Of a DNA stretch of 53,095 nt, positions 10,408-50,523 are shown one piece after another. This stretch comes from a virus (Duplodnaviria; Caudoviricetes). The notes below the pieces were generated by a model. That model worked only from the letters and a program-made list of their open reading frames with translations, did no database searches and was not told the DNA's origin. Location of the stretch: positions 1 through 53,095 of IMG/VR virus record IMGVR_UViG_3300027608_000043; one strand, written 5' to 3'. A program made the translations under genes and the position numbers. The first letter of the stretch is position 1. Each line of letters begins with the position of its first letter.

Positions 10408-13071
10408 CTAGTAATCAAATTGGAGCTTTCCTTTTTTGGCCAATCCATTTACTAGCCATACCAACGCATCCACACAATCATCATGACTACTCACGCCGAA
10501 GTTTGTGAGTTCCTCGAAGAGATTAGTGAAGTTCCGAAAACGATTAAAGATTATTTTTCGTTCTTCAAACATGCCTATAATCCCCCTAAACCGCGCCAGC
10601 TTATCTGCACGGAATCCCTTGACGGGGTGCCAGATCAAGTTGTTCAAACCTTCGTCATTAAGGCAAATCCTCTTAAAATCGGCTTCGAGAGAAGCTTGAT
10701 ATTGGACGGCTTCTGACCAGATATCACAAGTAGAGAAGGTTGGGAAGTAGTTCCCATTGTCATCTTTTCCTATGATCGACCAATCATTAAGCAATTCTTT
10801 CATTTCATCTAGCTTTTCTAGGTTGCCCATGGCCCGTATCCTGCGGTAATCAATGATATGAATACGATCATCAATACGTCCACCCAGGACCATTACGGTG
10901 TAGTCATTCTTTTCTTTAATTCCAGCAGATAAATCTACCCCTATACCAAGTGTATCAAATTCTGTTGCTATCTCCGCCTTTACTATCAGCTCTGGTGCCA
11001 GGGATAGCTCACCTTGTCTGACAATCTGATTCATGTATTGAAAAGAGAATGCAACAGGTGCTTGTCTTTTCTTTTCTTTTAAGTAATCCAGTGACCACAT
11101 TTCAGGCCAATAAGAAATCTCATCTCCTGTTTTAGGATCTGTTTGGATAGCAGACAACACAATTTGTTGCCAGTTATTTTGTTCATTAAAAGTAGTGGCG
11201 TGTATATCATCATGTCTGAATCTGGTACCCAAACATATTGCTCTCCCTCCTTCAAACATAGTTGGTGAGATAACCGCATTCCAGTTATCTTGCATTGCTT
11301 TACGTATATCAGGATTAGCTATATCTGTCGCTGATTTTATACAGTCATCAATTAAACATAAATGACTACGTTTAGATGTAACAGAGCCTTTTAATCCAGC
11401 TGCACAAAGAGTAAACATCTCATCACCGATATTATCAATACCGGCAAATTTATGATCAATGGACCAATATTCATTACTTGTTACGTTCTTTAATAGACGG
11501 ACTGCCGGGAATACTTCTTGATATTTACGGCTTTCTATAATACGTTTAATTGCTGCTGATTTAGGACGTGCAATTTCAACTGTATAAGAAAGATAAAGAA
11601 TTTGTAAAGGTAGCTTAGCTGTGGTATGTACACCAATAGCCCATGCAGTAAACAAACCTAAGGTCGTTGACTTTGCTGAATTGTGACTAACAATATAATC
11701 TTTAGTTAAGAAAGTATGACAGTTGTCGGCTACTTCAATACAACGTACTTTTTCTGTTGTTGATGGGCAAATATTTTTAATGCTGCGGCAAGGAAGATAC
11801 TTGGTGCAAGGAGAATATCTTTGGGCTTTACGGTGTAAGTGAAAAGGTTTAATGCTATCTGGTAATTTGATACCTAAGGTAACTGATGGTGTTGTCGTAC
11901 GTACGCGCTCTTGATGTTTGTTTAGGTATGTATTCAGTTGTGACGCACGTTGTGTTGCTATCCCTCCAAGGGATTGAACTAGCTCTGTTACATCTCTAAC
12001 AAGAGCTGTAGATGTTGTACAAAAAGACACCCCTCCTGTAGATGCAACAGTACCATCTGTGTCTAGCAACCCTTGTAGCAAGGCTTCTCGATCAGGTATC
12101 GATGCTATCAAATAAGACTTAGGAATAAACTTATCAATTGATGTTTTACCATAGACCCCAAGTGTTTTTAGGATCTCTCGCACAATACTTGGTTTTCCTC
12201 CAGCAAGAACCCCTTTAACATGTGAGATATTATATCCATATTTTGCTACTTTTTTAAAACGATAATCTTCTGGTAATCCTAGGGCACAACGTTCAACAAT
12301 CTCTGGATCTGCACTACATAAAGAAAGGTTATTAGAACTAAGAGAACCATCACCAAGTAATGCTCCTAATAAATATGGATCAAGAGGAAGTTCTGTTGCT
12401 GGATATTCAACTGGTTGTGTGACAGGAATCTGATAACGAGGATAACCTCTACTGTCTAACCAAGGTGTTTCTCCTGGTTCACAAGTAGCAGTAACTCTTT
12501 GGGTCAATGCTCCAGGGCGACCATTCCCTTTAATCCCTACTGTTTTTTGTGTACGTATTTCATTAAGTGTCATGCTGCGCCAATCTCCTTTTCCGTCTGT
12601 TCCCATTCGTCGCACCTTCCATAGGTGTTGATCGTCACAACGAACAGAAGAACCATCAGTAAAGACGACTTCCCATGTAAGTGATTCTTCGTAATCTGAA
12701 ATACCTACTACTTCAGTTAATTGCCCGTGTTCAGAAAAGACAATATCACCAACTTGTAGTTCCCCTATAGGTACCCATCCATTAGGAGTAGCTACCGGTG
12801 TAGATACAGCTAATGGCCCACGGGGACCAAGTAGATCAATATTCGGACCGGCTATATTTTTTAAACAGACACTATCCTCACCTGTTACAAAGTGTCCGTG
12901 CCAATCCTTGTGGTGGGAGGCTGGAGGTTTATTAGCAACATATTCACAAAAGAAACTAAAATCTTCTCTAGCTTTTTTTACTGCTTCTTGGTTATCAGAT
13001 GGTTTAACTGTGTAGTTTTTTGCAGCCGCCCTTGCGTTGCGTCGATACGCAAGATGTAAATATGAGGGCAT
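10408..13071 (-). CDS. terL: Terminase large subunit, intein-containing
   Basis: Walker A PRG|SAKST split by the intein, Walker B LCLIDD, GTRF coupling motif, nuclease GVD...DYT...HDDCVDA. Confidence 0.92.
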   Translation of the reverse strand: MPSYLHLAYRRNARAAAKNYTVKPSDNQEAVKKAREDFSFFCEYVANKPPASHHKDWHGHFVTGEDSVCLKNIAGPNIDLLGPRGPLAVSTPVATPNGWVPIGELQVGDIVFSEHGQLTEVVGISDYEESLTWEVVFTDGSSVRCDDQHLWKVRRMGTDGKGDWRSMTLNEIRTQKTVGIKGNGRPGALTQRVTATCEPGETPWLDSRGYPRYQIPVTQPVEYPATELPLDPYLLGALLGDGSLSSNNLSLCSADPEIVERCALGLPEDYRFKKVAKYGYNISHVKGVLAGGKPSIVREILKTLGVYGKTSIDKFIPKSYLIASIPDREALLQGLLDTDGTVASTGGVSFCTTSTALVRDVTELVQSLGGIATQRASQLNTYLNKHQERVRTTTPSVTLGIKLPDSIKPFHLHRKAQRYSPCTKYLPCRSIKNICPSTTEKVRCIEVADNCHTFLTKDYIVSHNSAKSTTLGLFTAWAIGVHTTAKLPLQILYLSYTVEIARPKSAAIKRIIESRKYQEVFPAVRLLKNVTSNEYWSIDHKFAGIDNIGDEMFTLCAAGLKGSVTSKRSHLCLIDDCIKSATDIANPDIRKAMQDNWNAVISPTMFEGGRAICLGTRFRHDDIHATTFNEQNNWQQIVLSAIQTDPKTGDEISYWPEMWSLDYLKEKKRQAPVAFSFQYMNQIVRQGELSLAPELIVKAEIATEFDTLGIGVDLSAGIKEKNDYTVMVLGGRIDDRIHIIDYRRIRAMGNLEKLDEMKELLNDWSIIGKDDNGNYFPTFSTCDIWSEAVQYQASLEADFKRICLNDEGLNNLIWHPVKGFRADKLARFRGIIGMFEERKIIFNRFRNFTNLFEELTNFGVSSHDDCVDALVWLVNGLAKKGKLQFDY
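11680..12816 (-). mobile_element. Class 3-type intein (Pro1 ... SHN/S+1) with LAGLIDADG homing endonuclease, 379 aa
   Basis: Block A PLAVSTPVATPNGW, block B HLW, block F VRCIEV, block G IVSHN; LLGALLGDG and LLQGLLDTDG motifs. Confidence 0.9.
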
Positions 13072-23600: not shown

Positions 23601-23898
23601 CTGTAGAAATTTTTTCTACAACTGGTGCAGCCTCTGCTGGTGGTGCATATACTTTTTTAATTGGAGTTTTTCTTCCGAGTAGTCGTGTTAAACCAAATCC
23701 ACCTGCACCAATGCCTGCTAAAGCTGCTACGGTACCTAGAGCATTTGTTACGTTAAAGTCTTCATCTTTACTTTTGAGTTGATTACGCCTAAACTCAAGT
23801 ACCTCAGGTGCCATCTGTGCCCTTTCTTCTGCGTCTTCTGGGAATGGTGTTCCAGTAGCACGACTATATGCGTAGAAATCAGTCGGAGAAAGGGCCAT
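20608..23898 (-). CDS. Large hypothetical protein, probably virion-internal
   Basis: 1096-aa ORF with one N-proximal hydrophobic segment; first gene of the - strand arm. Confidence 0.65.
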   Translation of the reverse strand: MALSPTDFYAYSRATGTPFPEDAEERAQMAPEVLEFRRNQLKSKDEDFNVTNALGTVAALAGIGAGGFGLTRLLGRKTPIKKVYAPPAEAAPVVEKISTAGVPPSKTVEQFALVTPKPTSEPTRQSLIRRQGRLISREEGLKRGPTKFTPRSFLEERGSVSSDLTSIQDQLDPLITKQSVEASDPGLDQVVTRGVVIPAQREVTGFTAFSKNADRIKRVSDEIQDFSQELAKINTVNENVIKTFNPYGITEEDFEVLGERGTQELERAYERGGRSVSDLTGEIKVDPKIGRQLRKEGTVVRPGSVLQLSQFSDTPAREGVGVNRFTPNEILERTMAAASYPREIRDQILNPNVSREEIREFLGSTPKVRGGAVSINPTMEIAGGARASMPEAFVDELQTAGVGGVGLTYADTANLPGLGQKEKLERAGFVFDPNTGNYVQTIDDMEFEPDFLEGGFFNENATDYGDTEGVGNLLLPTETFKERTNKSTTLIPGAVESVRGLVGRAGTERQERVIDAVIPFRKDVDSEQTTGLRVQADPESSFERQLGLRDIGYKRGGIISSEDTLTQGTKLAGGFEPAVANVSRLITTQPASDWTNQIKSPYISSQTGLIRGDDGKYYLPTTKRLLLDEETPLLGKKLIPLKQVDPITGQIKTTWGNHPATKLEQLALNRAELEEVAEAAKDAYFNDPVQKAAYLTKNNPEVLAKGRAEGLPLSEIGESYDYQGFIINAVDDYLMNNKGIDLPILKQEISLKTGTTYFPTEAHGFITNLLKTEKDTGIYGIPVKTNERGVPLAKGFKKAIDPKTGKEYTTKYVDWAVEDVPEGPIPGRYQVRGSGGVDPMTLGDEGDTSNVAYQSPRIDTISQRKLLGILQKSNIEAGAAVGLGPSTQTGVDMTRLRGAMETPSTGEGMRRVNVRNPQTGNVVGKVNVPTMNIGSFARTQNPYTGVAAAAAGPASRVLEGNYQYTSSQLNPNLAPTSQLPLAGTGIRRLTPEQIDELNQFALTANLTPGGYVRQGALRLGRGDAPILSGVGPLSEGETIQRYGITGSNLAQFGNALMRQAALDKMIVTPQGRRGKPPGPTSVRNKLRKNTNGDLVF

Positions 23899-23988
23899 TT
23901 AGGTTTATCAGCTTTATTTTTGTTCTGTAAATATTCTAATGTTGATAATCTAGGTTATAGTAAAATAATAAAACAAGTTTAAACATAC

Positions 23989-24216
23989 ATGGATCCTCAG
24001 GCAAGGCAAGCAAGAATCGAAGGGCTGCAAAGTATTAAGAAAAAAGCTTTAAACCTTGCTGGTGCTGGTGCAGATGCGTTTGAAATACGTGATTTTGTAA
24101 CAGAAGCTAAAAAGGGACTTGCTTATACAGTACCAGAGGAAGATCAATTTAGAAAATCTAAGACACTTGCATTAGAATACAAGAGACAACAGGCAACAGA
24201 TCCTATTGTTGACTAG
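23989..24216 (+). CDS. Hypothetical protein
   Basis: 75-aa ORF followed by a terminator. Confidence 0.65.
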   Translation: MDPQARQARIEGLQSIKKKALNLAGAGADAFEIRDFVTEAKKGLAYTVPEEDQFRKSKTLALEYKRQQATDPIVD

Positions 24217-24237
24217 ATTTAAGTAAAAGTTAAATCA

Positions 24238-24262
24238 CCGGGCTTAAAAACCCGGATTTTTT
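24238..24262 (+). terminator. Intrinsic terminator
   Basis: CCGGG-cttaaaaa-CCCGG followed by ATTTTTT. Confidence 0.7.
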
Positions 24263-24414
24263 GTGTGTATTTTTGGGCTAAGTAGGGATTTTACATACTA
24301 AAAACACTATAAAAGGGTCTAATTAGGGTAAAAATTTCGTTACTGTTCTCCACATACCCACAGCAAACATAATGTGGGGAGAAAAAAAAGAACTACGGGG
24401 TAGTTCGTATAGAT

Positions 24415-24441
24415 AGGGGGCTGCGCATCCTTATAACGCAG
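24415..24441 (+). ncRNA. Divergent pseudoknot-leader candidate (PK family)
   Basis: AGGG/UCCU and CUGCG/CGCAG helices with a UAUAA linker; ends 21 nt before ATG 24463, as the canonical copies do. Confidence 0.35.
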
Positions 24442-24462
24442 GTATTCCATCGCAATAGTACC

Positions 24463-24738
24463 ATGCAACTGAGCAAGCTAGAGGAGAAGGTTGTCGATTT
24501 TGGCGACAGGTGCCAGCAAGTGGCTAGATACCTGTGGAACGGGCGAAACGTTAGTATCACGGAGCGCCAGCTCCAGTGGTATGAGATGAGCCCACATCAG
24601 GTAATAGAAGAGTTACTTGAATCAGTACAAAGTTTAGAGTGCGAAGAAGCCTGTGAAGCAGGCTTTGAGCGTCAGTTTACAGTTTACTGTACCAAGCGAG
24701 GAGGAGTTTACTCCTTTAAAGCGAAGGTAATGAACTAA
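24463..24738 (+). CDS. Hypothetical early protein
   Basis: 91-aa ORF with the CCATCGCAAT motif 6 nt upstream. Confidence 0.6.
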   Translation: MQLSKLEEKVVDFGDRCQQVARYLWNGRNVSITERQLQWYEMSPHQVIEELLESVQSLECEEACEAGFERQFTVYCTKRGGVYSFKAKVMN

Positions 24739-24843
24739 GCTCCCGGATACCTAGTATAACCTAATCTTCTTAATGTTTTCTTAACGTTTGTAGATTAGGT
24801 CGTGCTAGAATCGCCTGTTTTCGTTCTCAAACGAATGTTGGGC

Positions 24844-24868
24844 CGTCAAGCTGGACGTTAAACGCAGC
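24844..24868 (+). ncRNA. PK-family pseudoknot, variant copy
   Basis: CGUC-AA-GCUG-GACG-UUAAAC-G-CAGC: same topology and UUAAAC linker. Confidence 0.6.
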
Positions 24869-24879
24869 AGACAACTCAG

Positions 24880-25179
24880 GTGGTAGATCACCAGGTGTCC
24901 TTGGCATCCACACTTCAGTGGTATAAGTCCAAGCTACTGGAGAACACCGTGATCAACACCACCGCTAGCGCCAACGTTACTGAGTTGGAGCTGACTGACA
25001 TTACTGAAATGTCATCGGCTGCAATGCAGGAAATGTTTGACGCGTCTCGACGGAAGTGTGGCGATAACGTAATGAGTAAGGTCCTTGACCTACTCGAGTA
25101 CGGACGTAGCCAAACACTTACTGCCGAACATCTCCAGGTCATCAAGTCCTACGTGGATGAGATGCTGGAGAACAACTGA
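24880..25179 (+). CDS. Hypothetical early protein
   Basis: 99-aa ORF; start uncertain. Confidence 0.55.
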   Translation: MVDHQVSLASTLQWYKSKLLENTVINTTASANVTELELTDITEMSSAAMQEMFDASRRKCGDNVMSKVLDLLEYGRSQTLTAEHLQVIKSYVDEMLENN

Positions 25180-25257
25180 ACTGTAGTACTCCACTTGTTG
25201 GAGGGCCAGGTGCAACTCCTGGCTTCAGTTATTACCCACAGCGGAGATGGGTACCGC
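25174..25257 (+). ncRNA. tRNA-like three-way junction plus pseudoknot, copy 1
   Basis: AACUGAA/UUCAGUU stem, CUCCA/UGGAG hairpin, GCCAGG-UGCAACU-CCUGGC T-arm-like hairpin, then UACCCA/UGGGUA with GCGG/CCGC. Confidence 0.7.
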
Positions 25258-25273
25258 ACACATGGAGTTATCC

Positions 25274-25585
25274 ATGGCTAACACTACCATCAACCTTGAA
25301 GATGGTTGGACACAACGCCCAGTTTTTACTGGTGTTTGGCATTTGGAGTATGTTGATCCAGTTGCTGGATTCGACATCTCCATCGTGACAGGACCACTAG
25401 GTTCTGGAGTGATGGGAGTTATTGCTCCAGGTAAGCCAACAACCTATGAAGCCTGGTTGCCAGGATTATCTAACCCCACAGGTTATTTAACCTTGGATGA
25501 AATACGTGGCGTTATTAAATATCTTCGAGAGAAGCATCATGATGATACGTATCGGTTGCTTTGTGAAGATGACATGACAAACTGA
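25274..25585 (+). CDS. Hypothetical early protein
   Basis: Likely start ATG 25274 (MANTT...) after GGAG. Confidence 0.6.
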   Translation: MANTTINLEDGWTQRPVFTGVWHLEYVDPVAGFDISIVTGPLGSGVMGVIAPGKPTTYEAWLPGLSNPTGYLTLDEIRGVIKYLREKHHDDTYRLLCEDDMTN

Positions 25586-25666
25586 GCTGTAGTACTGCAG
25601 CAATGCAGGGCCAGGTGCAACTCCTGGCTTCAGTCATTGCCCAGTCCGCAGGAGATGGGCACCTGC
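25580..25666 (+). ncRNA. tRNA-like three-way junction plus pseudoknot, copy 2
   Basis: ACUGAG/UUCAGU, CUGCA-GCAA-UGCAG, identical T-arm-like hairpin, then UGCCCA/UGGGCA with GCAGG/CCUGC; compensatory changes relative to copy 1. Confidence 0.7.
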
Positions 25667-25683
25667 ACAACATCAACTCGATT

Positions 25684-25872
25684 ATGTTTTCAGTTAATAA
25701 CGTAGCTGCATTCATATGTGGTTATGTGATTGTAATAGGTATTGGTTCGCTAATAGCAGTGCGTATGCTTGATAAAGCAACTGCACAACAATGCATTAAC
25801 CACGACTGGCCTACTGCTGCGCATAAAGTCCACATGGACTGGTGTACAGCTAACGGCTACGTAACTAAGTAA
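25684..25872 (+). CDS. Small membrane protein
   Basis: Likely start ATG 25684; TM helix then 'QQCINHDWP...HMDWC'. Confidence 0.55.
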   Translation: MFSVNNVAAFICGYVIVIGIGSLIAVRMLDKATAQQCINHDWPTAAHKVHMDWCTANGYVTK

Positions 25873-25896
25873 CTTCCTTCATCCAACCTTAAACTC

Positions 25897-26100
25897 ATGA
25901 AATCTGACTCATTGCTAACTCCCGTACTTGCCGTTGTCATGGGCACCGGCCTTGGCATGCTGCTTTCAGTAGCTGGCCAGAAGGTGCTCAATGCACACAC
26001 CCTAGAGAACTGTTGGCGTACACCTAATCGCCAACTTGTCCACCTTCGCTTGTTCCAAGGTGATGCATGGTACTGCGTAGACAAACGCTACCTTAACTAA
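25897..26100 (+). CDS. Small membrane protein
   Basis: TM helix then Cys-x...GDAWYC. Confidence 0.55.
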   Translation: MKSDSLLTPVLAVVMGTGLGMLLSVAGQKVLNAHTLENCWRTPNRQLVHLRLFQGDAWYCVDKRYLN

Positions 26101-26102
26101 CA

Positions 26103-26175
26103 GGACGAAACTAGGTTATAACATCATAACGATGCTGTAACCTGGTCGGCAGTTAATTACTGCCCTGATGAGTCC
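26103..26175 (+). ncRNA. Hammerhead ribozyme, type II
   Basis: GGAC-GAAA-[stem III CUAGGUUAUA/UGUAACCUGG]-UC-[stem I GGCAGU/ACUGCC]-CUGAUGA-GUCC; complete catalytic core, predicted cleavage after C26147. Confidence 0.93.
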
Positions 26176-26203
26176 ACATCAGAAACCCCATCGCATTATT
26201 ACC

Positions 26204-26416
26204 ATGAAGAACAATCACAAGATCTGCGGCAGGTACGTGGAACTAGACACGTATCGTCGCAGTAAAGATACTAGACAGTTAAAGCTAACCATATTAAATA
26301 TCATTACATTTATCGGAGCCGCTGCTGTGATGGCTATTGTCATAACAGCAGGGTTAGGCTCTGATATAACCACACCCTTGACTCCAACACAACATGAACA
26401 ACTCAAGAGAAGATGA
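26204..26416 (+). CDS. Small membrane protein
   Basis: Likely start ATG 26204 with the CCATCGCATT motif 6 nt upstream; one TM helix. Confidence 0.55.
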   Translation: MKNNHKICGRYVELDTYRRSKDTRQLKLTILNIITFIGAAAVMAIVITAGLGSDITTPLTPTQHEQLKRR

Positions 26417-26485
26417 CGTAATAGTCATCAGCATTACCATCATCTCAATCCTATTCACACTATTATTTCAACTCATTCTAGAAAC

Positions 26486-26848
26486 ATGGCATTACTTCCA
26501 GAGCAACAGCAAATCGCAACAGCAATCGGTTACGTCGCCCTTGATGGTGACGAAGGTACCTCACAGTACCCAGCCGATATTGACTTTCCGACCCCTCCTC
26601 CTAAAGGAGCAATCCCCTGCACAGGGAACGTCCGTAAAGATAAACACGGTACCCTCCGCTGCTATTGGATTCCAGCAGGAGGTAACTACACCTCCGAAGA
26701 GAAAGACGAGCTCCAAGGGTGGTACGACGTGCCAACCCTTGAAGACATCGAAGAGTACACGTTCGACGACACCTGCTATACCCCAGCAGGTGACGAAGTA
26801 GAACCTGATCATCCTGATAGCTGGCTAAGGATACTTAGCCTGGTATAA
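26486..26848 (+). CDS. Hypothetical phage protein
   Basis: C-terminal 'GDEVEPDHPDSWLRILSLV' motif typical of small phage proteins. Confidence 0.65.
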   Translation: MALLPEQQQIATAIGYVALDGDEGTSQYPADIDFPTPPPKGAIPCTGNVRKDKHGTLRCYWIPAGGNYTSEEKDELQGWYDVPTLEDIEEYTFDDTCYTPAGDEVEPDHPDSWLRILSLV

Positions 26849-26852
26849 CTAA

Positions 26853-26888
26853 ACCTGGGCACCCATCACCATGGGGTAAGTCCCAGGT
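26853..26888 (+). ncRNA. Internal-loop hairpin leader (CCUGGG-CA...GUAAGY-CCCAG), copy 1
   Basis: ACCUGGG/CCCAGGU plus CCCAU/AUGGG; 31 nt before ATG. Confidence 0.65.
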
Positions 26889-26919
26889 ATCCAACCAACC
26901 TTACTTTATTTTCAACATC

Positions 26920-27300
26920 ATGGCTTTTAAACCAACCTTCACTTTCCCACATTCAGAAGAAGACTTTGTAACAGTAATCTGTTTAAGAGTCGAGCCACGC
27001 TACGAAGAAGTTGTAATGTCACGCGCTGAATTTGAAAGGTTTAACAAAGTATTTAAACCTTGTGAAGAAGAAGGTTATTTTGCTGCTGATTTATTAGAAG
27101 AGTTTAAATTTAAAGATTGGAATACTATGAATCTAGATAGTCCATTAGATTCGTTTAAATATTATTTCAGAGCATACTCTGGTGATGTAACTTCAGGTTC
27201 TGATGACGTAATCTTTATGGATTCTAATCTGAGCTGGCAAAAACCATTCAAACGAAAATATCTTACATTACGTGGAGATGAAAGAATCATTAACACTTAG
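26920..27300 (+). CDS. Hypothetical protein
   Basis: 126-aa ORF. Confidence 0.6.
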   Translation: MAFKPTFTFPHSEEDFVTVICLRVEPRYEEVVMSRAEFERFNKVFKPCEEEGYFAADLLEEFKFKDWNTMNLDSPLDSFKYYFRAYSGDVTSGSDDVIFMDSNLSWQKPFKRKYLTLRGDERIINT

Positions 27301-27311
27301 ATTTAACCATC

Positions 27312-27470
27312 ATGACTTATCTAACTCATCAAAGCTACACTATTGATCAACTAGATGTATTAACAGATATTGCAGATGTACAAGAAGAAGCAATGCGTAA
27401 TTTCAGATGGTGTGATAGTCCAGAACTATTACCTGATGAAGTAACTTTTGTTTCAACAATTACTGAATAA
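27312..27470 (+). CDS. Small acidic protein (52 aa, MTYLTHQSY...)
   Basis: Translated by hand; fills the gap between two elements. Confidence 0.45.
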   Translation: MTYLTHQSYTIDQLDVLTDIADVQEEAMRNFRWCDSPELLPDEVTFVSTITE

Positions 27471-27480
27471 CAACTTAACA

Positions 27481-27516
27481 ACCTGGGCACCCATCACCAT
27501 GGGGTAAGCCCCAGTT
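27481..27516 (+). ncRNA. Internal-loop hairpin leader, copy 2
   Basis: Near-identical to 26853-26888; 29 nt before ATG. Confidence 0.65.
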
Positions 27517-27545
27517 ATTTAATCAAACCTTAACCTCCACCTAAC

Positions 27546-27845
27546 ATGACTACCACTGCGCCACGCATCAATGAATACACTGCTCTCGCGGGTATTCTCA
27601 AAGACCTCAAGGCTATCGTAGCCAGGGAAAGCAAGCGTCCACAAGGGTGTGAAGACCTCACACTCTCAATGCTTGCCCTTTTAGAAGAGGAGATCATTCC
27701 TCAACTAGAGAATGAGATCGAACATGATCTTAACTACGATCCAACACCTCAGCATTTATGGGATGCCACAGGGGGTGAAGCCCCAGTGACCATGGCAGAA
27801 ATGCATGCCTCTGCTTGGCAACAACACCAAGAAATGCATAGCTGA
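27546..27845 (+). CDS. Hypothetical phage protein
   Basis: 99-aa ORF, 'YDPTP...GGEAPVTMAEMH...AWQQH'. Confidence 0.65.
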   Translation: MTTTAPRINEYTALAGILKDLKAIVARESKRPQGCEDLTLSMLALLEEEIIPQLENEIEHDLNYDPTPQHLWDATGGEAPVTMAEMHASAWQQHQEMHS

Positions 27846-27850
27846 ATCAC

Positions 27851-27879
27851 ACGTCCTGAGTATGACGTTAAACTGCTCA
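27851..27879 (+). ncRNA. PK-family pseudoknot leader
   Basis: ACGUC-C-UGAGUA-U-GACG-UUAAAC-UGCUCA. Confidence 0.8.
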
Positions 27880-27900
27880 CACTCCATTGCAATTTAAGAC

Positions 27901-28311
27901 ATGTTCTTTTCCAATCCTTCCAAGTCTCATTGCTTTAACGGTCCGTTAGAGGTTACAGCAACAACAAGTCTCAAGAAGATTACTAAGACAATAGAAGATC
28001 GTATCGACGGTCTTATCTCCAAGCTAATCCGTAGCTTTGAGAAACAATATCCTGGTCGCTACGGCGACATGACCTTTGAGATTAACAAAGGTAACAAGTA
28101 TTACAAGATCATGGAAGTAACAAGTTCCATGGGTTGTATTACTAGTAGATCAGTCCATGCTTTTATTAGTAGACAGACAGGTGCTGTATACAAACCAGCA
28201 GGCTGGAAGTCTCCGGCTAAACATGTAAGATACAATCTACTAGACGATGCATCCTATGCAAAATGTCTAGAGCGAGCTGACTGGGCAGGCGGCTACCTAT
28301 ACATAAGGTAA
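27901..28311 (+). CDS. Conserved phage protein (KYYKI...SVHAF...TG.VYKPA.WK.PAKHVRYNL family)
   Basis: Motif recognised from cyanophage/T4-like hypothetical proteins. Confidence 0.7.
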   Translation: MFFSNPSKSHCFNGPLEVTATTSLKKITKTIEDRIDGLISKLIRSFEKQYPGRYGDMTFEINKGNKYYKIMEVTSSMGCITSRSVHAFISRQTGAVYKPAGWKSPAKHVRYNLLDDASYAKCLERADWAGGYLYIR

Positions 28312-28376
28312 TCCGTCATTTCCTGCATAGATCACTCGCCATCCACTACATTACTACTATCCCCTCCCTTCCCACC

Positions 28377-28688
28377 ATGACTACTACAGACGTAGGCGGT
28401 ACCCTCTTCGGTGCCGTCATCGAGTACAGGATCAAGGTCAATGACATCTGGCAAGATCGATCAGTCTTTCTGATCAACAAACAACACGCACTCACGTGGT
28501 TGTCAGAAGACTGGGTCAAGATGACTAAGAAGCATGATGCCATGCTTATGGATATTCGTATCGATTATCCTGTCTACTATCCAGACATCGATCCAATAGA
28601 TGTTTCTGGCTATGAAGATCCAACGAATGCAGACATGATCTACAGTGTAGATTTCAAGTCTGAAAAGATAAGCTACTCAGAAGTATAG
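28377..28688 (+). CDS. Hypothetical protein
   Basis: 103-aa ORF. Confidence 0.55.
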   Translation: MTTTDVGGTLFGAVIEYRIKVNDIWQDRSVFLINKQHALTWLSEDWVKMTKKHDAMLMDIRIDYPVYYPDIDPIDVSGYEDPTNADMIYSVDFKSEKISYSEV

Positions 28689-28694
28689 ATGTAA

Positions 28695-28723
28695 GTGTCC
28701 TGGGCACGACATTAAACTGCCCT
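28695..28723 (+). ncRNA. PK-family pseudoknot leader
   Basis: GUGUC/GACAU and GGGCA/UGCCC: compensatory changes in both helices. Confidence 0.8.
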
Positions 28724-28755
28724 ATACACTTAATCAATTCTTAACCTCCTCATCC

Positions 28756-28965
28756 ATGACTGACTCCAACATTCAAGTGCCTGATGCTTTAAGCATTCAA
28801 CGATTACAAGCTATGGAATTTGTTGCCAAGATGAGAGCAGCAGCTGACCGTGTCGGAGCTGGTTTCATTGGTGGCTTCATTGATCCAAACACTGGTGAAC
28901 AATTCACCATGACTAATATGAATCCTTCTATTACTCCTGACATTACCAAATTATTAGAAGACTAA
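28756..28965 (+). CDS. Hypothetical protein
   Basis: 69-aa ORF. Confidence 0.6.
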   Translation: MTDSNIQVPDALSIQRLQAMEFVAKMRAAADRVGAGFIGGFIDPNTGEQFTMTNMNPSITPDITKLLED

Positions 28966-43347: not shown

Positions 43348-43466
43348 CTATGTCGTGGAATCCACACAAAACCTAAAGTCTATTAACCTGTTAGATCGTG
43401 AGTATTTGCGCTATGTTAAAGAAGTACAAGACCCTTCTTGGTTAGAAGGTTACCATCAAGCTATCC

Positions 43467-43847
43467 ATGACTTACTCCGGTTTCACCAATCCTGTTTACG
43501 AAGAGTGGAAGAAAAGTCAACAGAATCTTTTTAGTTCTTTCCACAACACTCCTTCTCCTTCTAAGGAAAGCCGTGAGACATTTTACTATGTGACAAGTGA
43601 GCTTCCTCCTTTAAAAGAAAGGACAGAAGAAGAAATAGCTAAGAGTAAAGAAGAGCAGAAGACTAGGTTGTACAACTTTTTGTACGACAGCTACACTGAA
43701 TTTGTTTCAGAAGGCGACCTTTCTTCTGAGGATTTCTTTGAAGCAATCCTAAAAGTGGCTACAGATGAACTCGAACGTAGTGGAAAAGAACATGCGCAAG
43801 CTGTTGTCCTTATGTCAAACCTTAAGAAAGAACAAACAGTTTTCTGA
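43467..43847 (+). CDS. Hypothetical protein
   Basis: 126-aa ORF. Confidence 0.55.
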   Translation: MTYSGFTNPVYEEWKKSQQNLFSSFHNTPSPSKESRETFYYVTSELPPLKERTEEEIAKSKEEQKTRLYNFLYDSYTEFVSEGDLSSEDFFEAILKVATDELERSGKEHAQAVVLMSNLKKEQTVF

Positions 43848-45078: not shown

Positions 45079-45633
45079 ATGTATACCTCTGGACCCGAGC
45101 CTGCTGCTCAATACGTACCAATGCCTAACGCAGTCGCTAAAGGTACAGAAGAGAAGCCAAAGAAAGTTAAGACGGTACCAGCTAAGCTTGGTGTTCCTGA
45201 TTTTATAAAGCAACTAACAAGTCATGCATCTTATGCTCACCAGCTTTATGTGCAAGCCCATCTAAATCATTTAAATTATGAGGGTAGTAACTTCCTTGCT
45301 ATCCATGCCTTCTTGAAAGATCAATATGAATTACATACTGAACAGTTCGATAGGTTAGCTGAGTTTGTACGCAGCATGGACTACCTTATGCCAATGTGTG
45401 GCTGTGGTTTAAAAGATGCTTACCCTAATTTCAAAAGTGTTACTAGCTATGACGGTAAGGCGATGCTGCTTACATACTTAAAGAACCTTGAAGATTTTGG
45501 TATGCAGTCAAAAGACTTGGGTGTTGCTGCAAAAGAAGTACAGGCACCTGATGTAGAAAACTATAGTGCTGAATTAGTAGGCGATTCATTTAAGTCAGCT
45601 TGGTTCCTGAAAGCTACTTTGAGAAATAGTTAA
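45079..45633 (+). CDS. dps: Dps/ferritin-like protein
   Basis: H..HLNYEG.NF..IH.....Y......D..AE and C-terminal K.AWFL. Confidence 0.8.
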   Translation: MYTSGPEPAAQYVPMPNAVAKGTEEKPKKVKTVPAKLGVPDFIKQLTSHASYAHQLYVQAHLNHLNYEGSNFLAIHAFLKDQYELHTEQFDRLAEFVRSMDYLMPMCGCGLKDAYPNFKSVTSYDGKAMLLTYLKNLEDFGMQSKDLGVAAKEVQAPDVENYSAELVGDSFKSAWFLKATLRNS

Positions 45634-47292: not shown

Positions 47293-48633
47293 TTAGCAGG
47301 TCTTGGTTACTGTCCAGATTAAATCATCATACCTACCTTTGGTTCGACGTACGTCAAATGTACGTACAGAACTACGGTGTTCAGCAGAAAGTCTCTTGGT
47401 TAAAACGTCAAGATGATTACTGTCTTGAATATCCTCAATTATTAAAATACCATTAAGATTTAATAAGGGAAAGTAATTGTCTACAACAAAGTTTTGACTA
47501 TGTAAAGAATGGGGACCGTCATCAATAATAATATCAAAACCGTTAGGTACTTCTTCTTTAAACCTTTGAACTAAACTATTATCATATGCATTAGTACAAT
47601 AGAACTTATAGCGATCTTTATCCATGCTGTTCCAGATTTTACTAGGGACAACATCTGCAATATCAACTAGATGTAAAGAAAATTCAGGAAGATAGTCATG
47701 CCACAATAAAGAAGATCCACCATGCTGTACACCTATCTCTAGTAGGGTACCAGGGGAGTTACGATAGTTTTTAAGAACATGATCATAGATTCCAGTGTAG
47801 TTATGCAGACTGTTTTTATCTGTTCCACCTGGATATTCAAAGCCATTTACGTTGTGTTTATCTAAGATTTCTACAATGTCATCTGCTGGGTTGCACCAGG
47901 AAAGAGCAGATAGTTTTGGTTTGGTTTGAGTTGTTGTCATCTTGGGAAACTCTGTGTCTGTAAGATAGTTCTTACTATAGCTGGTTTTAGGGTACGGCTG
48001 TACATAATGCTGCGCATTATTTAATTTATTTAATCCTGTTTCCCACAAATTCTTAACTGTTGGATTATTGCTACCGATCCAGAACTCTCGGAAGTATCGC
48101 ACTGGTTTATGTAGTAGGTACTCATCGGTTAATGCCGCAATATAGTTGGTGTTTGCCCACCAGAATCCTCCAGAAAAATGGGGGTAGTCACCTAGCATCG
48201 TCTGTGTTTGCCAGTTGATTCCTGTTGTTGCATATCCCTCATCTAGATATGATACACACTTAGTCCAGTTATGGATAGTGAAGTATTCCATACAATGACG
48301 CCAGTCTTCTACATACTTAAAATCTGGTTGATCTATTCGTGAGATCCCTTTGGTATGCATATACAATACATACGAATCTGGATTAGCTTTTGCCCAGGTA
48401 TGTAACGCTTCTAACGTATTTGTTTCTTCTGTCTTATTAGTGTTTTCTATTACGACAGCCTTGGCTGGAGCTTTGATTAAAGAGGGATCTCCATTTACTC
48501 CTATATGAAAATAATCTAGGGAGTCATAAAGACCACTCAACCAAACTGCTCCCATCTGTTCTTGGTACATGGTTTCCCATGCATGAGGTTCACAAGGAAA
48601 CACATGATAGAAGACAGCAAGTTTAGTCATCAT
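47293..48633 (-). CDS. Fusion: glycosyltransferase-like domain plus class I SAM methyltransferase
   Basis: N-half VLYMHTKG...WR..M.YF...HFSGGFWWA; C-half GTDK...H.Y...LLEIGV..GGS...FDIIIDDGPH. Confidence 0.7.
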   Translation of the reverse strand: MMTKLAVFYHVFPCEPHAWETMYQEQMGAVWLSGLYDSLDYFHIGVNGDPSLIKAPAKAVVIENTNKTEETNTLEALHTWAKANPDSYVLYMHTKGISRIDQPDFKYVEDWRHCMEYFTIHNWTKCVSYLDEGYATTGINWQTQTMLGDYPHFSGGFWWANTNYIAALTDEYLLHKPVRYFREFWIGSNNPTVKNLWETGLNKLNNAQHYVQPYPKTSYSKNYLTDTEFPKMTTTQTKPKLSALSWCNPADDIVEILDKHNVNGFEYPGGTDKNSLHNYTGIYDHVLKNYRNSPGTLLEIGVQHGGSSLLWHDYLPEFSLHLVDIADVVPSKIWNSMDKDRYKFYCTNAYDNSLVQRFKEEVPNGFDIIIDDGPHSLHSQNFVVDNYFPLLNLNGILIIEDIQDSNHLDVLTKRLSAEHRSSVRTFDVRRTKGRYDDLIWTVTKTC

Positions 48634-49826
48634 TCCAGATCATTTATATAGTCACTATACATACTGATCTCGGTGGCAGGAAGCATTGTAATAATACGTC
48701 CTTTGTAGTGAGGCCTTAAACTTTTGATAATGTAATCTTTAAAGTTGTGGGCTAACACAATTAAGTTGTCAGGTTGATTCTTGTATAGGTAATCACGATC
48801 CATAATTTGCATTCCAGTACCAGGGACGTATAGCCCTTGTTTGGATGTAGTATCATCAACAACATAAGCTCTGGGTTTAGTGGCGGTTGTCACACCTAAC
48901 GCATTCAGGTATACACATCCTTTGGCCGCTGCCCCAAAGTAGGCAGTCTCCCCTTCCAGATTATTAAGAAAACATATATCTTTTATAATTTTTACATCAA
49001 GATCAGAACGGCAACGTTTAAAATCAAACTCCTGTTCTTGTTTTATAAAATCAAGGTGAGCATTCGTGTTGGCATAAACTTCTTTATTTGTTATCCATAG
49101 ACGCATCGTTCCCCCATGTATAGAAAGTTCTTCTGCATTGAAGATATGTAAGCCATACTCTTCAAACAATTTTTGTAGAGGTGACACAAGCCAATAGTAG
49201 TAGTGTTCGTGATAGAACTGATCAAACTGTAAAGTCTTAAGGGTATTTAACGTGTAAGGAAATTCAAGAATCCATACACCATCTAGATGTTCCTTGATGC
49301 CTTCAACAAATTTACGGGCATCTGAAGTATGTTGAAATACATTAGTAGAAATTATTAGATCAGCTTTAGGTAAGGCTAAGTCTTTATTGAAGTATGCATT
49401 AACGTATTCAATATTTGCAATACGATTTTCTTCTAAGAAAGAAGTACTGGCATCTACATTAATCAAACGTAGTTTATCTGTTGTCTGTGACTGAAAAGCT
49501 TTAAGGAGTGTGCCATCGTTTCCTCCAATATCAATAATGGTATTGTGTGTGAGATGTTTTAGTTTGTGCCAGAGGAGGTAACAGTGGTTAATGTAAGGTT
49601 TGTTGACTCCTGAATGATAGAGATAGTTCTTGTACAGCTTGTCTGGTGGTACAGCAGTACTAAGTTTAATGACTAGCTTGTCATCTATGGTCGCTTTCAA
49701 TGGATAGCGTTTAGCTGATAGAGCTTCCTTCCTTGTCTTACACAAGTTGTTGACTAAAGGTTGGGTGCCTAGATCAACTAAGGTTTGTTCAAATCCACCT
49801 AAGTCGTTGCGTTCGGGTTGGATCAT
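48630..49826 (-). CDS. NDP-hexose C-methyltransferase-like protein
   Basis: DLG.QPL.N, YLY.SG, DIGGNDGTLL, FDQFYHEH, HGGTMR, GAAAKG, KQG.Y.PGT; likely start ATG 49826. Confidence 0.82.
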   Translation of the reverse strand: MIQPERNDLGGFEQTLVDLGTQPLVNNLCKTRKEALSAKRYPLKATIDDKLVIKLSTAVPPDKLYKNYLYHSGVNKPYINHCYLLWHKLKHLTHNTIIDIGGNDGTLLKAFQSQTTDKLRLINVDASTSFLEENRIANIEYVNAYFNKDLALPKADLIISTNVFQHTSDARKFVEGIKEHLDGVWILEFPYTLNTLKTLQFDQFYHEHYYYWLVSPLQKLFEEYGLHIFNAEELSIHGGTMRLWITNKEVYANTNAHLDFIKQEQEFDFKRCRSDLDVKIIKDICFLNNLEGETAYFGAAAKGCVYLNALGVTTATKPRAYVVDDTTSKQGLYVPGTGMQIMDRDYLYKNQPDNLIVLAHNFKDYIIKSLRPHYKGRIITMLPATEISMYSDYINDLE

Positions 49827-50523
49827 ATTTCCAGTAATCGACTGGATAGTTTTTGTTAAAAGGCGTAACATACGTTTCCTTGTTGGGAGGTCCTCCCCAT
49901 TTCTTTATATAATAGTTGTAATTTTCTTGAAATGTAAAGTTGTTTTTTTGTTGGAAGATAGTAGAACTTTTTAAGGTGCTGCTCGTCTGGTGTTCATTAG
50001 TAAGAGGGATGGATGTAATCTTGGTATTGGTTAGCTTAAGACGGTAGCGATAGTCGTTGTCTTCAAAGTAACCGGGGAAAAAGTTTTCATCAAAGTAACC
50101 CACCCGATCTAAAAGCGTAGGAGTCAATACAAGACCACACATCTCATCGTTTCCAGTGCCAAGGGTTGCACCAAAGGGGAGCAGATCGCTTTTACTAAGG
50201 ACTTTCTGCCATTCGCCAGGGGCTACCCACCAATCAAATCCTGTAATAATCCAGTGGTTGCAGTCAGTGTTCTGACGGACTATTAGGTTTACTGCCCCAG
50301 GGAATCCTACGTTCTGTGATAAGGAGCAAACAACAACCTTATCAATGTGCTTTGGCTTCCAGTTGATGATATGTTTTATGGCCTCACCCACGGAAGGGTC
50401 TTTGCCCATGGAGTTATCTAGGATGAAATACCGCTTAAGGGGTACATCAATTGTTTCAAAATGACGTATGAGTTTGTCACCGTCTACCAGAATGGGAACA
50501 GCGATCAGGTCAAGTTTTTTCAT
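49789..50523 (-). CDS. Glycosyltransferase family 2-like
   Basis: ILDNS, NVGFPGAVN, VGYFDENFFPGYFEDNDY..R. Confidence 0.78.
   Translation of the reverse strand: MKKLDLIAVPILVDGDKLIRHFETIDVPLKRYFILDNSMGKDPSVGEAIKHIINWKPKHIDKVVVCSLSQNVGFPGAVNLIVRQNTDCNHWIITGFDWWVAPGEWQKVLSKSDLLPFGATLGTGNDEMCGLVLTPTLLDRVGYFDENFFPGYFEDNDYRYRLKLTNTKITSIPLTNEHQTSSTLKSSTIFQQKNNFTFQENYNYYIKKWGGPPNKETYVTPFNKNYPVDYWKYDPTRTQRLRWI

Follow-up and report, generated by a model that had tools for sequence, protein, structure and literature searches.

In animal mitochondria, open reading frames (ORFs) abut transfer RNAs (tRNAs) that mark the cut sites of a polycistronic transcript, and such tRNA-shaped punctuation of messages is textbook biology for these organelles. 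Phage T7 carries RNase III processing sites between its genes in the form of long irregular hairpins. In T4-type phages, small early genes are reportedly flanked by PeSL cassettes, said to have been described by Arbiol et al. in 2010, which combine a promoter with a terminator-like stem. Plant mitochondria possess t-elements, whose ends match messenger RNA (mRNA) termini and which are regarded as signals for RNase Z and RNase P (Hanic-Joyce et al. 1990; Forner et al. 2007, PMC1920247). According to the latter report, a released t-element carried non-templated C and A residues, and the motif GGTTCRANYCC was used to find t-elements (PMC1920247). Here we describe a tRNA-like RNA unit that occurs twice, at 25174-25260 and 25580-25669 on the plus strand, in the virus record IMGVR_UViG_3300027608_000043. 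The record consists of 53,095 nucleotides (nt) and has an estimated completeness of only 67%; the whole of it was analysed and is referred to below as the window.

A conserved family of tRNA-like units

A sequence-only reading of the window had proposed a duplicated tRNA-like element lacking a D arm at 25174-25230 and 25580-25635, and both copies were located. A 26-nt core, GGCCAGGTGCAACTCCTGGCTTCAGT, is present exactly at 25204-25229 and 25609-25634 and nowhere else in the window; none of 100 shuffles contained two matches. In a pairwise alignment the likeness of the copies begins about 6 nt before each upstream stop codon and extends about 30 nt past 25230 and 25635. The junction is as that reading had drawn it, but the element had been ended about 30 nt short, and the N-AUU sequence and the pseudoknot that complete each unit had gone unseen.

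Copy 1 opens with an acceptor-like stem, P1, whose 5' strand AACUGAA (25174-25180) pairs with 25224-25230, where UUCAGU is followed by U25230 (AACUGAA/UUCAGUU overall); U25230 takes either the discriminator position or the seventh pair, with A25174. The J1/2 linker CUGUAGUA (25181-25188) leads into the P2 hairpin CUCCA-CUUGU-UGGAG (25189-25203), and the single J2/3 base G25204 into P3, the T-arm-like hairpin GCCAGG-UGCAACU-CCUGGC (25205-25223). After P1 come the invariant single-stranded AUU (25231-25233) and a pseudoknot (25234-25260) with helices S1 (25234-25238/25248-25252) and S2 (25241-25244/25254-25257); AGAU, or AGA if the fifth S1 pair forms, lies between the 5' strand of S2 and the 3' strand of S1, and ACA trails. 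Copy 2 follows the same plan. Its P1 pairs ACUGAG (25581-25586) with 25629-25634 through one wobble (G25586-U25629), and encloses the linker CUGUAGUA (25587-25594), the P2 hairpin CUGCA-GCAA-UGCAG (25595-25608) and a P3 hairpin identical to that of copy 1 (25610-25628). The 3' strand UUCAGU, the unpaired C25635 and AUU (25636-25638) together occupy 25629-25638 and are followed by a pseudoknot of the long-L1 form, with a longer first loop (25639-25669; S1 25639-25642/25657-25660, S2 25648-25652/25662-25666). All of these parts lie on the plus strand. The acceptor-like stem, the T-loop-like hairpin and a middle hairpin that changes its letters while staying paired had been recognized earlier, as had the lack of an anticodon loop and of CCA: a single P2 hairpin stands between P1 and the T arm, and AUU is at the place of CCA. 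Coding, or read-through past UGA, was considered and rejected, since the P2 lengths differ by non-multiples of three and the frames differ between copies.

Homologues of the unit number in the hundreds and are found in S-EIV1-like phage contigs, including the cultured Synechococcus phage S-EIVl; this large family had escaped the sequence-only reading. The window copies belong to what we call type A. A pattern built on the type-A linker and loop matched 10 stretches in IMG/VR, seven contigs (8 copies) being true relatives and three being chance matches within coding sequence; when either the linker or the loop was freed, searches of viral contigs again matched only those seven type-A contigs. 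A metagenome scan with the 8-nt linker left free yielded 55 distinct type-A copies, and the linker CUGUAGUA is invariant in all type-A copies including these 55. A covariance model built from 10 type-A copies and run on the window with filters off found the two copies only, with scores of 90.5 and 80.3 bits against 12.6 bits (E 1.3) for the next match, and its scan of whole related contigs gave weaker matches on the same strand 300-600 nt away that represent sister types. Type B has no linker; its P1, GCUGA/UCAGC, leads straight into the 4-base-pair (bp) hairpin UCCG-UNAAAG-CGG, and its third element is a stem of 6-7 bp capped by a UGCRANN loop. In type C, P1 is CUGAGU/ACUCAG, P2 is bulged and the T arm reads GGGGG-AUCRAAU-CCCCC. 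The proposal that an invariant linker replaces the D arm is thus too simple, since the sister types are linkerless and carry a short D-arm-like hairpin. With our own scanner, 278 distinct units were recovered among the loci gathered at that stage.

AUU stands at the place of CCA in every one of the 55 metagenome and 10 viral type-A copies and in the first 7 type-B copies, and it was no part of the patterns or the model that found them. What follows AUU is one of four modules: the knot, a hairpin of 7 bp whose loop is ACUGA, the 5-bp hairpin GCCAC-AAUCCC-GUGGC or, rarely, a hairpin resembling the coremin motif of plant viruses. The ACUGA-hairpin pattern by itself matched 53 viral contigs and the knot pattern at least 119 stretches. 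Pairing of the ACUGA loop with UCAGU in the 3' strand of P1 was considered and rejected; in the L026 locus P1 is GCUAA/UAGC, yet the ACUGA loop is kept.

The fold is conserved in related phages, with strong covariation in both junction and pseudoknot, as the sequence-only reading had demanded of a real element. In the type-A alignment of 10 copies, 99.4% of the 170 pair cells hold a standard pair and 4 of the 17 pairs have changed on both sides; none of 500 shuffles matched its covariation score, and slid controls were 32-57% paired. The type-B alignment comprises 125 copies picked by length, P2 motif and loop motif, pairing not being a criterion. Here 97.8% of 2000 cells are paired and 11 of 16 pairs have changed on both sides; the five pairs of the outer T stem each use 3-6 standard pair types, and the two pairs beside the T loop are kept as G-C in 123 and 124 of the 125 copies. 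The knot alignment, A5, contains 146 knots of common length, with 99.8% of 1168 cells paired and 5 of 8 pairs changed on both sides. Its search pattern had fixed three of the eight pairs (one in S2, two in S1), and the informative pairs are accordingly 4-22, 7-19, 11-27, 12-26 and 13-25. Those that vary on both sides include 4-22 (GC 121, AU 25) and 7-19 (CG 72, UA 60, UG 13) in S1 and 12-26 and 13-25 in S2, against slid controls that were 26-49% paired. As judged from this alignment, the downstream knot is an H-type pseudoknot, both interleaved helices being kept by compensatory change. The folding energy of the copies is unremarkable (z -0.96 to -2.21) and was not counted as evidence.

The alignments also identify the strand that folds. 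Type-B copies have U-G at pair 8-21 in 114 of 125 cases and G-U at pair 3-47 in 47 of 125. Both would be A-C mismatches on the opposite strand, indicating that the folded strand is the sense RNA; structures formed by opposite-strand RNA or by DNA hairpins are disfavoured by the same pairs.

Arrays, exchange and genomic setting

The units form arrays of up to 6 per locus, on one strand only, with a median spacing of 281 nt and one unit behind each small gene. At about 100 nt per unit, a large share of the early region is spent on them. Those of the window are placed early in a rightward gene block that reaches DNA polymerase A, SSB and a primase-polymerase, and that diverges from a leftward block holding the terminase. 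The large subunit of the terminase (10408-13071, minus strand) is split by a LAGLIDADG homing-endonuclease domain and likely holds an intein. Elsewhere in the window, a ferritin-like protein and two methyltransferase-domain proteins, one of them with a C-methyltransferase C-terminal domain, are encoded at 45079-45633 (plus) and 47293-49871 (minus). S-EIVl (KJ410740.1) has two type-B units in the same genomic setting, at about 43,430-43,500 and 43,730-43,780 of its record; they are unannotated, and its GenBank record has no RNA feature at either place.

The family belongs to phages. Among 185,579 species genomes there were 55 pattern matches, and a T arm accompanies only one, on an 8.9-kb contig (L282) of a metagenome-assembled genome. 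The other prokaryotic matches lack a T arm and are due to chance, and a host origin was rejected. Each of 17 DNA runs from freshwater, lake, aquatic and wastewater metagenomes contained half or more of the words sampled from 23900-28900. Relatives of the unit also occur in contigs from RNA libraries (3 runs of 3 studies), where carry-over of DNA is possible; these contigs are no evidence of transcription or of RNA ends, and their breaks at repeats are expected from assembly.

All three junction types combine with every type of downstream module. A gene with the C-terminus ...PENYG precedes a type-A unit in L010 and type-B units in L004, L042 and L044, the switch falling exactly after CUGA, and in L007 the orthologue of ORF 2 of the window is followed by a hairpin at the place of the window's knot. 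Junction types and modules that combine freely and replace one another at orthologous sites are functionally equivalent. Copies within a genome can also have private variants in common (GGCCAGG in both window copies, GGCUAGG in both copies of L006), which points to exchange between copies.

The same swaps and private variants, with the free mixing of junctions and modules, could be taken to mean that the units are recombination borders of gene cassettes, patches of homology by which small accessory genes are shuffled between phages. We consider this distinctly unlikely. Homology requires identity, yet the stems covary, the G-U pairs are strand-specific and the units keep to one strand. The units also have no promoter-like site, unlike PeSL; a scan of 23800-26500 placed neither a promoter-like nor a terminator-like site within 25174-25260 or 25580-25669. 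Gene shuffling is probably a by-product of the repeats and not their purpose. Such sites do exist elsewhere in the scanned region: the first rightward ORF (23989-24216) has a promoter-like site, TTGATA-16-AATAAT (23942-23969, plus), ahead of it and a hairpin and T run resembling a terminator (24238-24255, plus) behind it, and TGCTAGAAT, an extended -10-like word by eye that the scan did not list, lies at about 24805-24813 before the gene preceding copy 1.

The exchange of junction types also bears on a catalytic or sensing function. The type-A junction, with three ways, an invariant linker and an invariant loop, has the look of a self-cleaving ribozyme or a ligand-sensing riboswitch, and a twister-sister ribozyme had been raised by the sequence-only reading. 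We regard this as extremely improbable. No ribozyme or riboswitch family was matched by the window region or three type-B and type-C loci at E<=10, or by seven type-B loci at E<=1, and there is no conserved junction core, since types B and C do without the linker and yet occur at orthologous sites.

Stop codon, T arm and a proposed cut at AUU

The units resemble the acceptor/T half of a tRNA in measure as well as in outline. From the end of the T loop to AUU there are 12 nt in 219 of 278 units and 13 nt in 56. P1 and the T stem sum to 12 bp in 183 units, 11 in 64 and 13 in 28; the distance is the cleaner figure, because the summed stems come from a scanner that maximises pairing. Both window units have 6 + 6 bp and then one variable base, so that the stacked helix of about 12 bp and the discriminator of an acceptor/T minihelix are both represented. 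When 254 stretches were selected by their downstream module alone, the five T-stem pairs were present at a fixed offset in 194-244 of them. The T loops include UGCAAAC (111), UGCAACU (15), AUCGAAU (38), UUCGAUU (7), UUCGACU (6) and UUCAACU (3), and some T arms are canonical, such as GCCGGG-UUCGAUU-CCCGGC in L061 and GGAGGG-UUCGACU-CCCUCC in L037. A tRNA T loop has the form UUCRANN closed by G53-C61, and both G52-C62 and G53-C61 stay G-C in tRNA; the UGCAACU loop of the window is likewise closed by two G-C pairs. Set against the t-element T-arm motif GGTTCRANYCC, GGUGCAACUCC in the window fits at 10 of 11 positions (as does GGTGCAACTCC, at 10 of 11), and sister copies fit at all 11, for example GGTTCGATTCC in L061. 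A loop of the UGCAA kind is also found in a genuine tRNA, the tRNA-Leu(UAA) of a related phage (L007, 11971-12056, plus), whose T loop is UGCAAGU and whose CCA is encoded. Its orthologue in L063 has the T loop UUCGAUC, and a hairpin of the AUUGCC type lies about 60 nt upstream of the tRNA-Leu genes in L007 and L029.

The searches with tRNA finders and Rfam that the sequence-only reading had called for mark the limits of this likeness. ARAGORN reports no tRNA gene anywhere in the window and calls none of the elements a tRNA in 20 loci; Rfam 15 gives no match at gathering score for the window region and nothing relevant at E<=10. Aligned to a type-C copy, the Rfam tRNA model (RF00005) places acceptor and T arm end to end with the D and anticodon arms deleted, scoring 19 bits, below its gathering score of 29. 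The copies of L037 likewise reach only sub-threshold scores with Tymo_tRNA-like (RF00233; 16.9 bits against 40) and tmRNA (RF00023; 14.1 bits against 47). There is neither a D arm nor an anticodon arm with its 7-nt loop, the single P2 loop measuring from 3 to at least 8 nt and having no conserved sequence in type A. The unit is not a tRNA, since it has neither anticodon arm nor CCA and reaches no model threshold. From its sequence, it is a mimic of the acceptor/T minihelix with a predicted T-loop-like fold, and the comparison across the family supports the tRNA mimic proposed earlier.

Such a mimic might be a binding site or decoy for a protein that recognizes the tRNA elbow or the acceptor/T minihelix and is titrated or recruited by it, for instance the CCA-adding enzyme, EF-Tu, TruB/TrmA, a tRNA-directed host defence or a phage factor. 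That role would suit a conserved T-loop hairpin that stacks on an acceptor-like stem and recurs up to 6 times in an early transcript. We give it only a small probability: P2, the sole possible partner of the T loop, is wholly different among types A, B and C, and the scanned window proteins include no candidate partner. The decoy for anticodon nucleases suggested by the sequence-only reading finds no support, as the units have no anticodon loop to offer such enzymes and their P2 loops vary in size.

The second recurrent feature of the unit is the stop codon of the gene ahead of it. In the window, ORF 1 (24880-25179, plus; 99 amino acids, GTG start at 24880) ends with AAC and the UGA at 25177-25179, inside the 5' strand of P1 of copy 1, and ORF 2 (25274-25585, plus) ends AAC-UGA in the same way, with its stop at 25583-25585 inside that of copy 2; this had been noticed for both copies. 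Upstream frames of 73-156 codons terminate at the UGA of P1 in 9 of the 10 type-A copies; the tenth, the second in L006, follows a frame open for 12 codons only. The proteins upstream of type-A copies belong to several different families. ORF 1 has no PHROG family, nor has any of the 10 small ORFs around the units. Among the 272 units with a clear upstream frame, the stop (TGA 208, TAA 52, TAG 11) overlaps the 5' strand of P1 in 179. Units whose stop is UAA and not UGA carry the compensating base in the 3' strand of P1 (pair 6-44 GC 111, AU 8). The stop is kept in P1 through the change of stop type, with compensation, which argues that it is used. The last sense codon, also within P1, is biased to NNC, and the C-terminal residue of the ten type-A proteins is N, H, S, Y, D or G.

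This arrangement bears directly on RNase P, one of the enzymes that might read the unit. As the main enzyme it would cut upstream of the stop and yield non-stop early mRNAs, a timed early shut-off. The 12-bp ruler would set its cut in copy 1 between 25174 and 25175, before AAC-UGA, and cleavage of t-elements by RNase P is reported to give frame-internal 3' ends in nad6 and ccmC of plant mitochondria (PMC1920247). We hold this to be very unlikely. The stop in P1 is kept through a change of stop type with the other strand compensating, a cut at the 5' end of P1 would remove it, and bacteria tag non-stop messages for destruction.

On its downstream side the unit stands close to the next gene. The module ends about 10-17 nt ahead of the next start codon, with a median of 34-43 nt from AUU to that start, and a Shine-Dalgarno-like word precedes only 47 of 258 next genes. 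In the window the likeliest next starts, at 25274 and 25684, lie 13-15 nt past the knots. ORF 2 probably starts at ATG 25274 behind GGAG (25264-25267), its frame being open from 25247, and ORF 3 (25684-25872, plus; 62 amino acids, hydrophobic) probably at ATG 25684. Start codons have been called at an AUG within the knot (GGAGAUGGG), at 25247 in the ORF list of the window and for locus 3768 of S-EIVl (L168) in its GenBank annotation; the true starts of these genes probably lie further downstream.

A module that abuts the ribosome landing zone, few Shine-Dalgarno-like words and a stop in P1 that couples upstream termination to unfolding would all agree with an insulator that is never cut. In that case the folds would act in cis, blocking exonucleases or scanning ribosomes or setting the translation rate of the next gene, and the tRNA-like shape would be a stable fold or a protein-binding platform and no nuclease signal. 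Knots of the coremin type are reported to stall scanning ribosomes in eukaryotic extracts (PMC10520033). We think this unlikely, though a serious alternative: it leaves unexplained the 12-bp ruler, the G-C pairs beside the loop, the T-loop sequence and the AUU at the place of CCA. The two window knots have neither the hairpin nor the spacer of coremin-type exonuclease-resistant RNA (xrRNA). A more similar module lies at 24846-24866 (plus), upstream of the GTG start at 24880, where the hairpin CGUC-AAGCUG-GACG is followed by UUAAAC. Its stem and its spacer (GACGUUAAAC) are in common with the plant-virus coremin motif, though its hexaloop AAGCUG breaks the YGNNAD rule. The same coremin-like module directly follows the AUU of type-A units in L178, L180 and L185; the one in the window has no tRNA-like unit ahead and may lie in the 5' leader of the first gene of a transcript.

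The reading we prefer, with a probability of roughly 0.45, is RNA punctuation. Judged by anatomy, each repeat would be one punctuation unit on the sense strand of a polycistronic early message, in which a host tRNA-processing endonuclease would recognize the acceptor/T minihelix and cut at AUU, giving two protected ends; in copy 1 we infer a cut at or beside 25230/25231. The site is favoured by the 12-bp ruler, by the T loop and its closing pairs, by the AUU at the place of discriminator and CCA, and by the structure that begins right after AUU. On the upstream side, the mRNA would retain its stop codon and finish in a compact tRNA-like structure, possibly tailed with CCA, that would resist 3' exonucleases; with the stop inside P1, no naked 3' untranslated region would be left. 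The downstream mRNA would begin 0-3 nt ahead of a knot or hairpin that would shield its 5' monophosphate from RNase J and RNase E. Plant mitochondria make mRNA ends with their t-elements in a comparable manner. RNase Z is the likeliest candidate enzyme, as its cut would fall after the discriminator and retain the stop; alternatives would be a cut at AUU by RNase E or one on the 5' side by RNase P. RNase Z is reported to cut CCA-less precursors right after the discriminator and to be inhibited by C residues that follow it (PMC7479834), and RNase E and RNase J are stated to be encoded by all sequenced cyanobacteria (PMC8682795). A Pfam scan of 37 window proteins, from a record that is only 67% complete, showed no tRNA-processing enzyme, so the host would have to supply the nuclease. 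Punctuation by RNase P or RNase Z is also, of the uses suggested by the sequence-only reading, the best anatomical fit.

Several observations speak against punctuation by cleavage. The absence of a processing enzyme from the scanned proteins is one, and the sub-threshold scores of the elements with ARAGORN and with the Rfam models for tRNA, tmRNA and tRNA-like structures are another. At the position of U55 in tRNAs, the T loop of the window has G. No more than 3-4 nt are single-stranded, and the signature of cyanobacterial RNase E (A at -3, U at +2) is not fully fitted around AUU. The upstream stop lies outside P1 in 93 of the 272 units, and most of these stops fall no further than about 45 nt from the start of P1, before or after it. 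Because each terminating ribosome must melt P1, the fold is intermittent. Were RNase P to cut at the 5' end of this stem, the upstream message would lose its stop, which seems harmful. The RNA data consist of assembled contigs and are blind to RNA ends and cleavage.

A bolder version, which we rate as a long shot, has early mRNAs of S-EIV1-like cyanophages released by RNase Z with tRNA-like 3' ends that would be extended by the CCA-adding enzyme of the host and perhaps charged or bound by translation factors, and with a 5' knot that would block RNase J. If true, the 3' ends would be a counterpart, in a virus of bacteria, of the tRNA-like 3' ends of plant viruses, no exonuclease-resistant RNA would have been described from a bacterial system before the 5' knot, and the stop in P1 would tie each round of termination to the opening and closing of the 3' end of the message.

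Relation to known systems

We found no description in the literature of tRNA-shaped mRNA punctuation in a bacteriophage, and Rfam 15 has no family for the unit; a 2023 catalogue of 10,006 candidate viral RNAs may include it (PMC10690425). For annotation, the units imply that start codons are probably miscalled inside the knot and that an RNA stem limits the choice of the last residue in many early proteins. If the proposed punctuation is true, the family would supply naturally occurring minimal substrates of RNase Z or RNase P, knots that may resist RNase J and a compact, portable cassette for cyanobacteria that says "cut here, protect both ends". To our knowledge, cyanobacteria lack Rho.

Several known systems have parts of this plan in common. 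Like PeSL, the units are conserved intergenic modules beside small accessory genes, in a plastic early region with modular exchange, but they consist of complex RNA folds and have no promoter-like or terminator-like site. The RNase III sites of T7 are also phage intercistronic structures, which divide early polycistronic RNA and shield the cut ends with a stem, as the units would; they differ in fold and enzyme, and show neither tRNA likeness nor overlap with stop codons. Coremin xrRNA resembles the downstream modules in being a small knot or hairpin pair where a 5'-to-3' exonuclease would arrive (PMC10520033), while the window knots have no sequence likeness to coremin and RNase J would take the place of Xrn1. 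Tymo_tRNA-like and the tRNA-like domain of tmRNA mimic the acceptor and T arm without a normal anticodon arm, as the phage unit does; they stand at a 3' terminus, have CCA and are aminoacylated, whereas the phage unit is internal, has AUU and scores below threshold with both models. In the mitochondrial punctuation of animals, frames abut tRNA-shaped RNA just as they do here, but the phage unit has no anticodon arm and cannot decode.

The t-elements of plant mitochondria differ from the phage unit in several respects. The unit is phage-borne, comes in tandem arrays after nearly every small gene, has a stop codon within its acceptor-like stem and is always joined to AUU and a knot or hairpin; its loop is mostly UGCAA and not UUCRA, and its processing is predicted from anatomy. 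The two are alike in having a tRNA-like fold with a conserved T arm and no full cloverleaf, placed within mRNAs beside reading frames.

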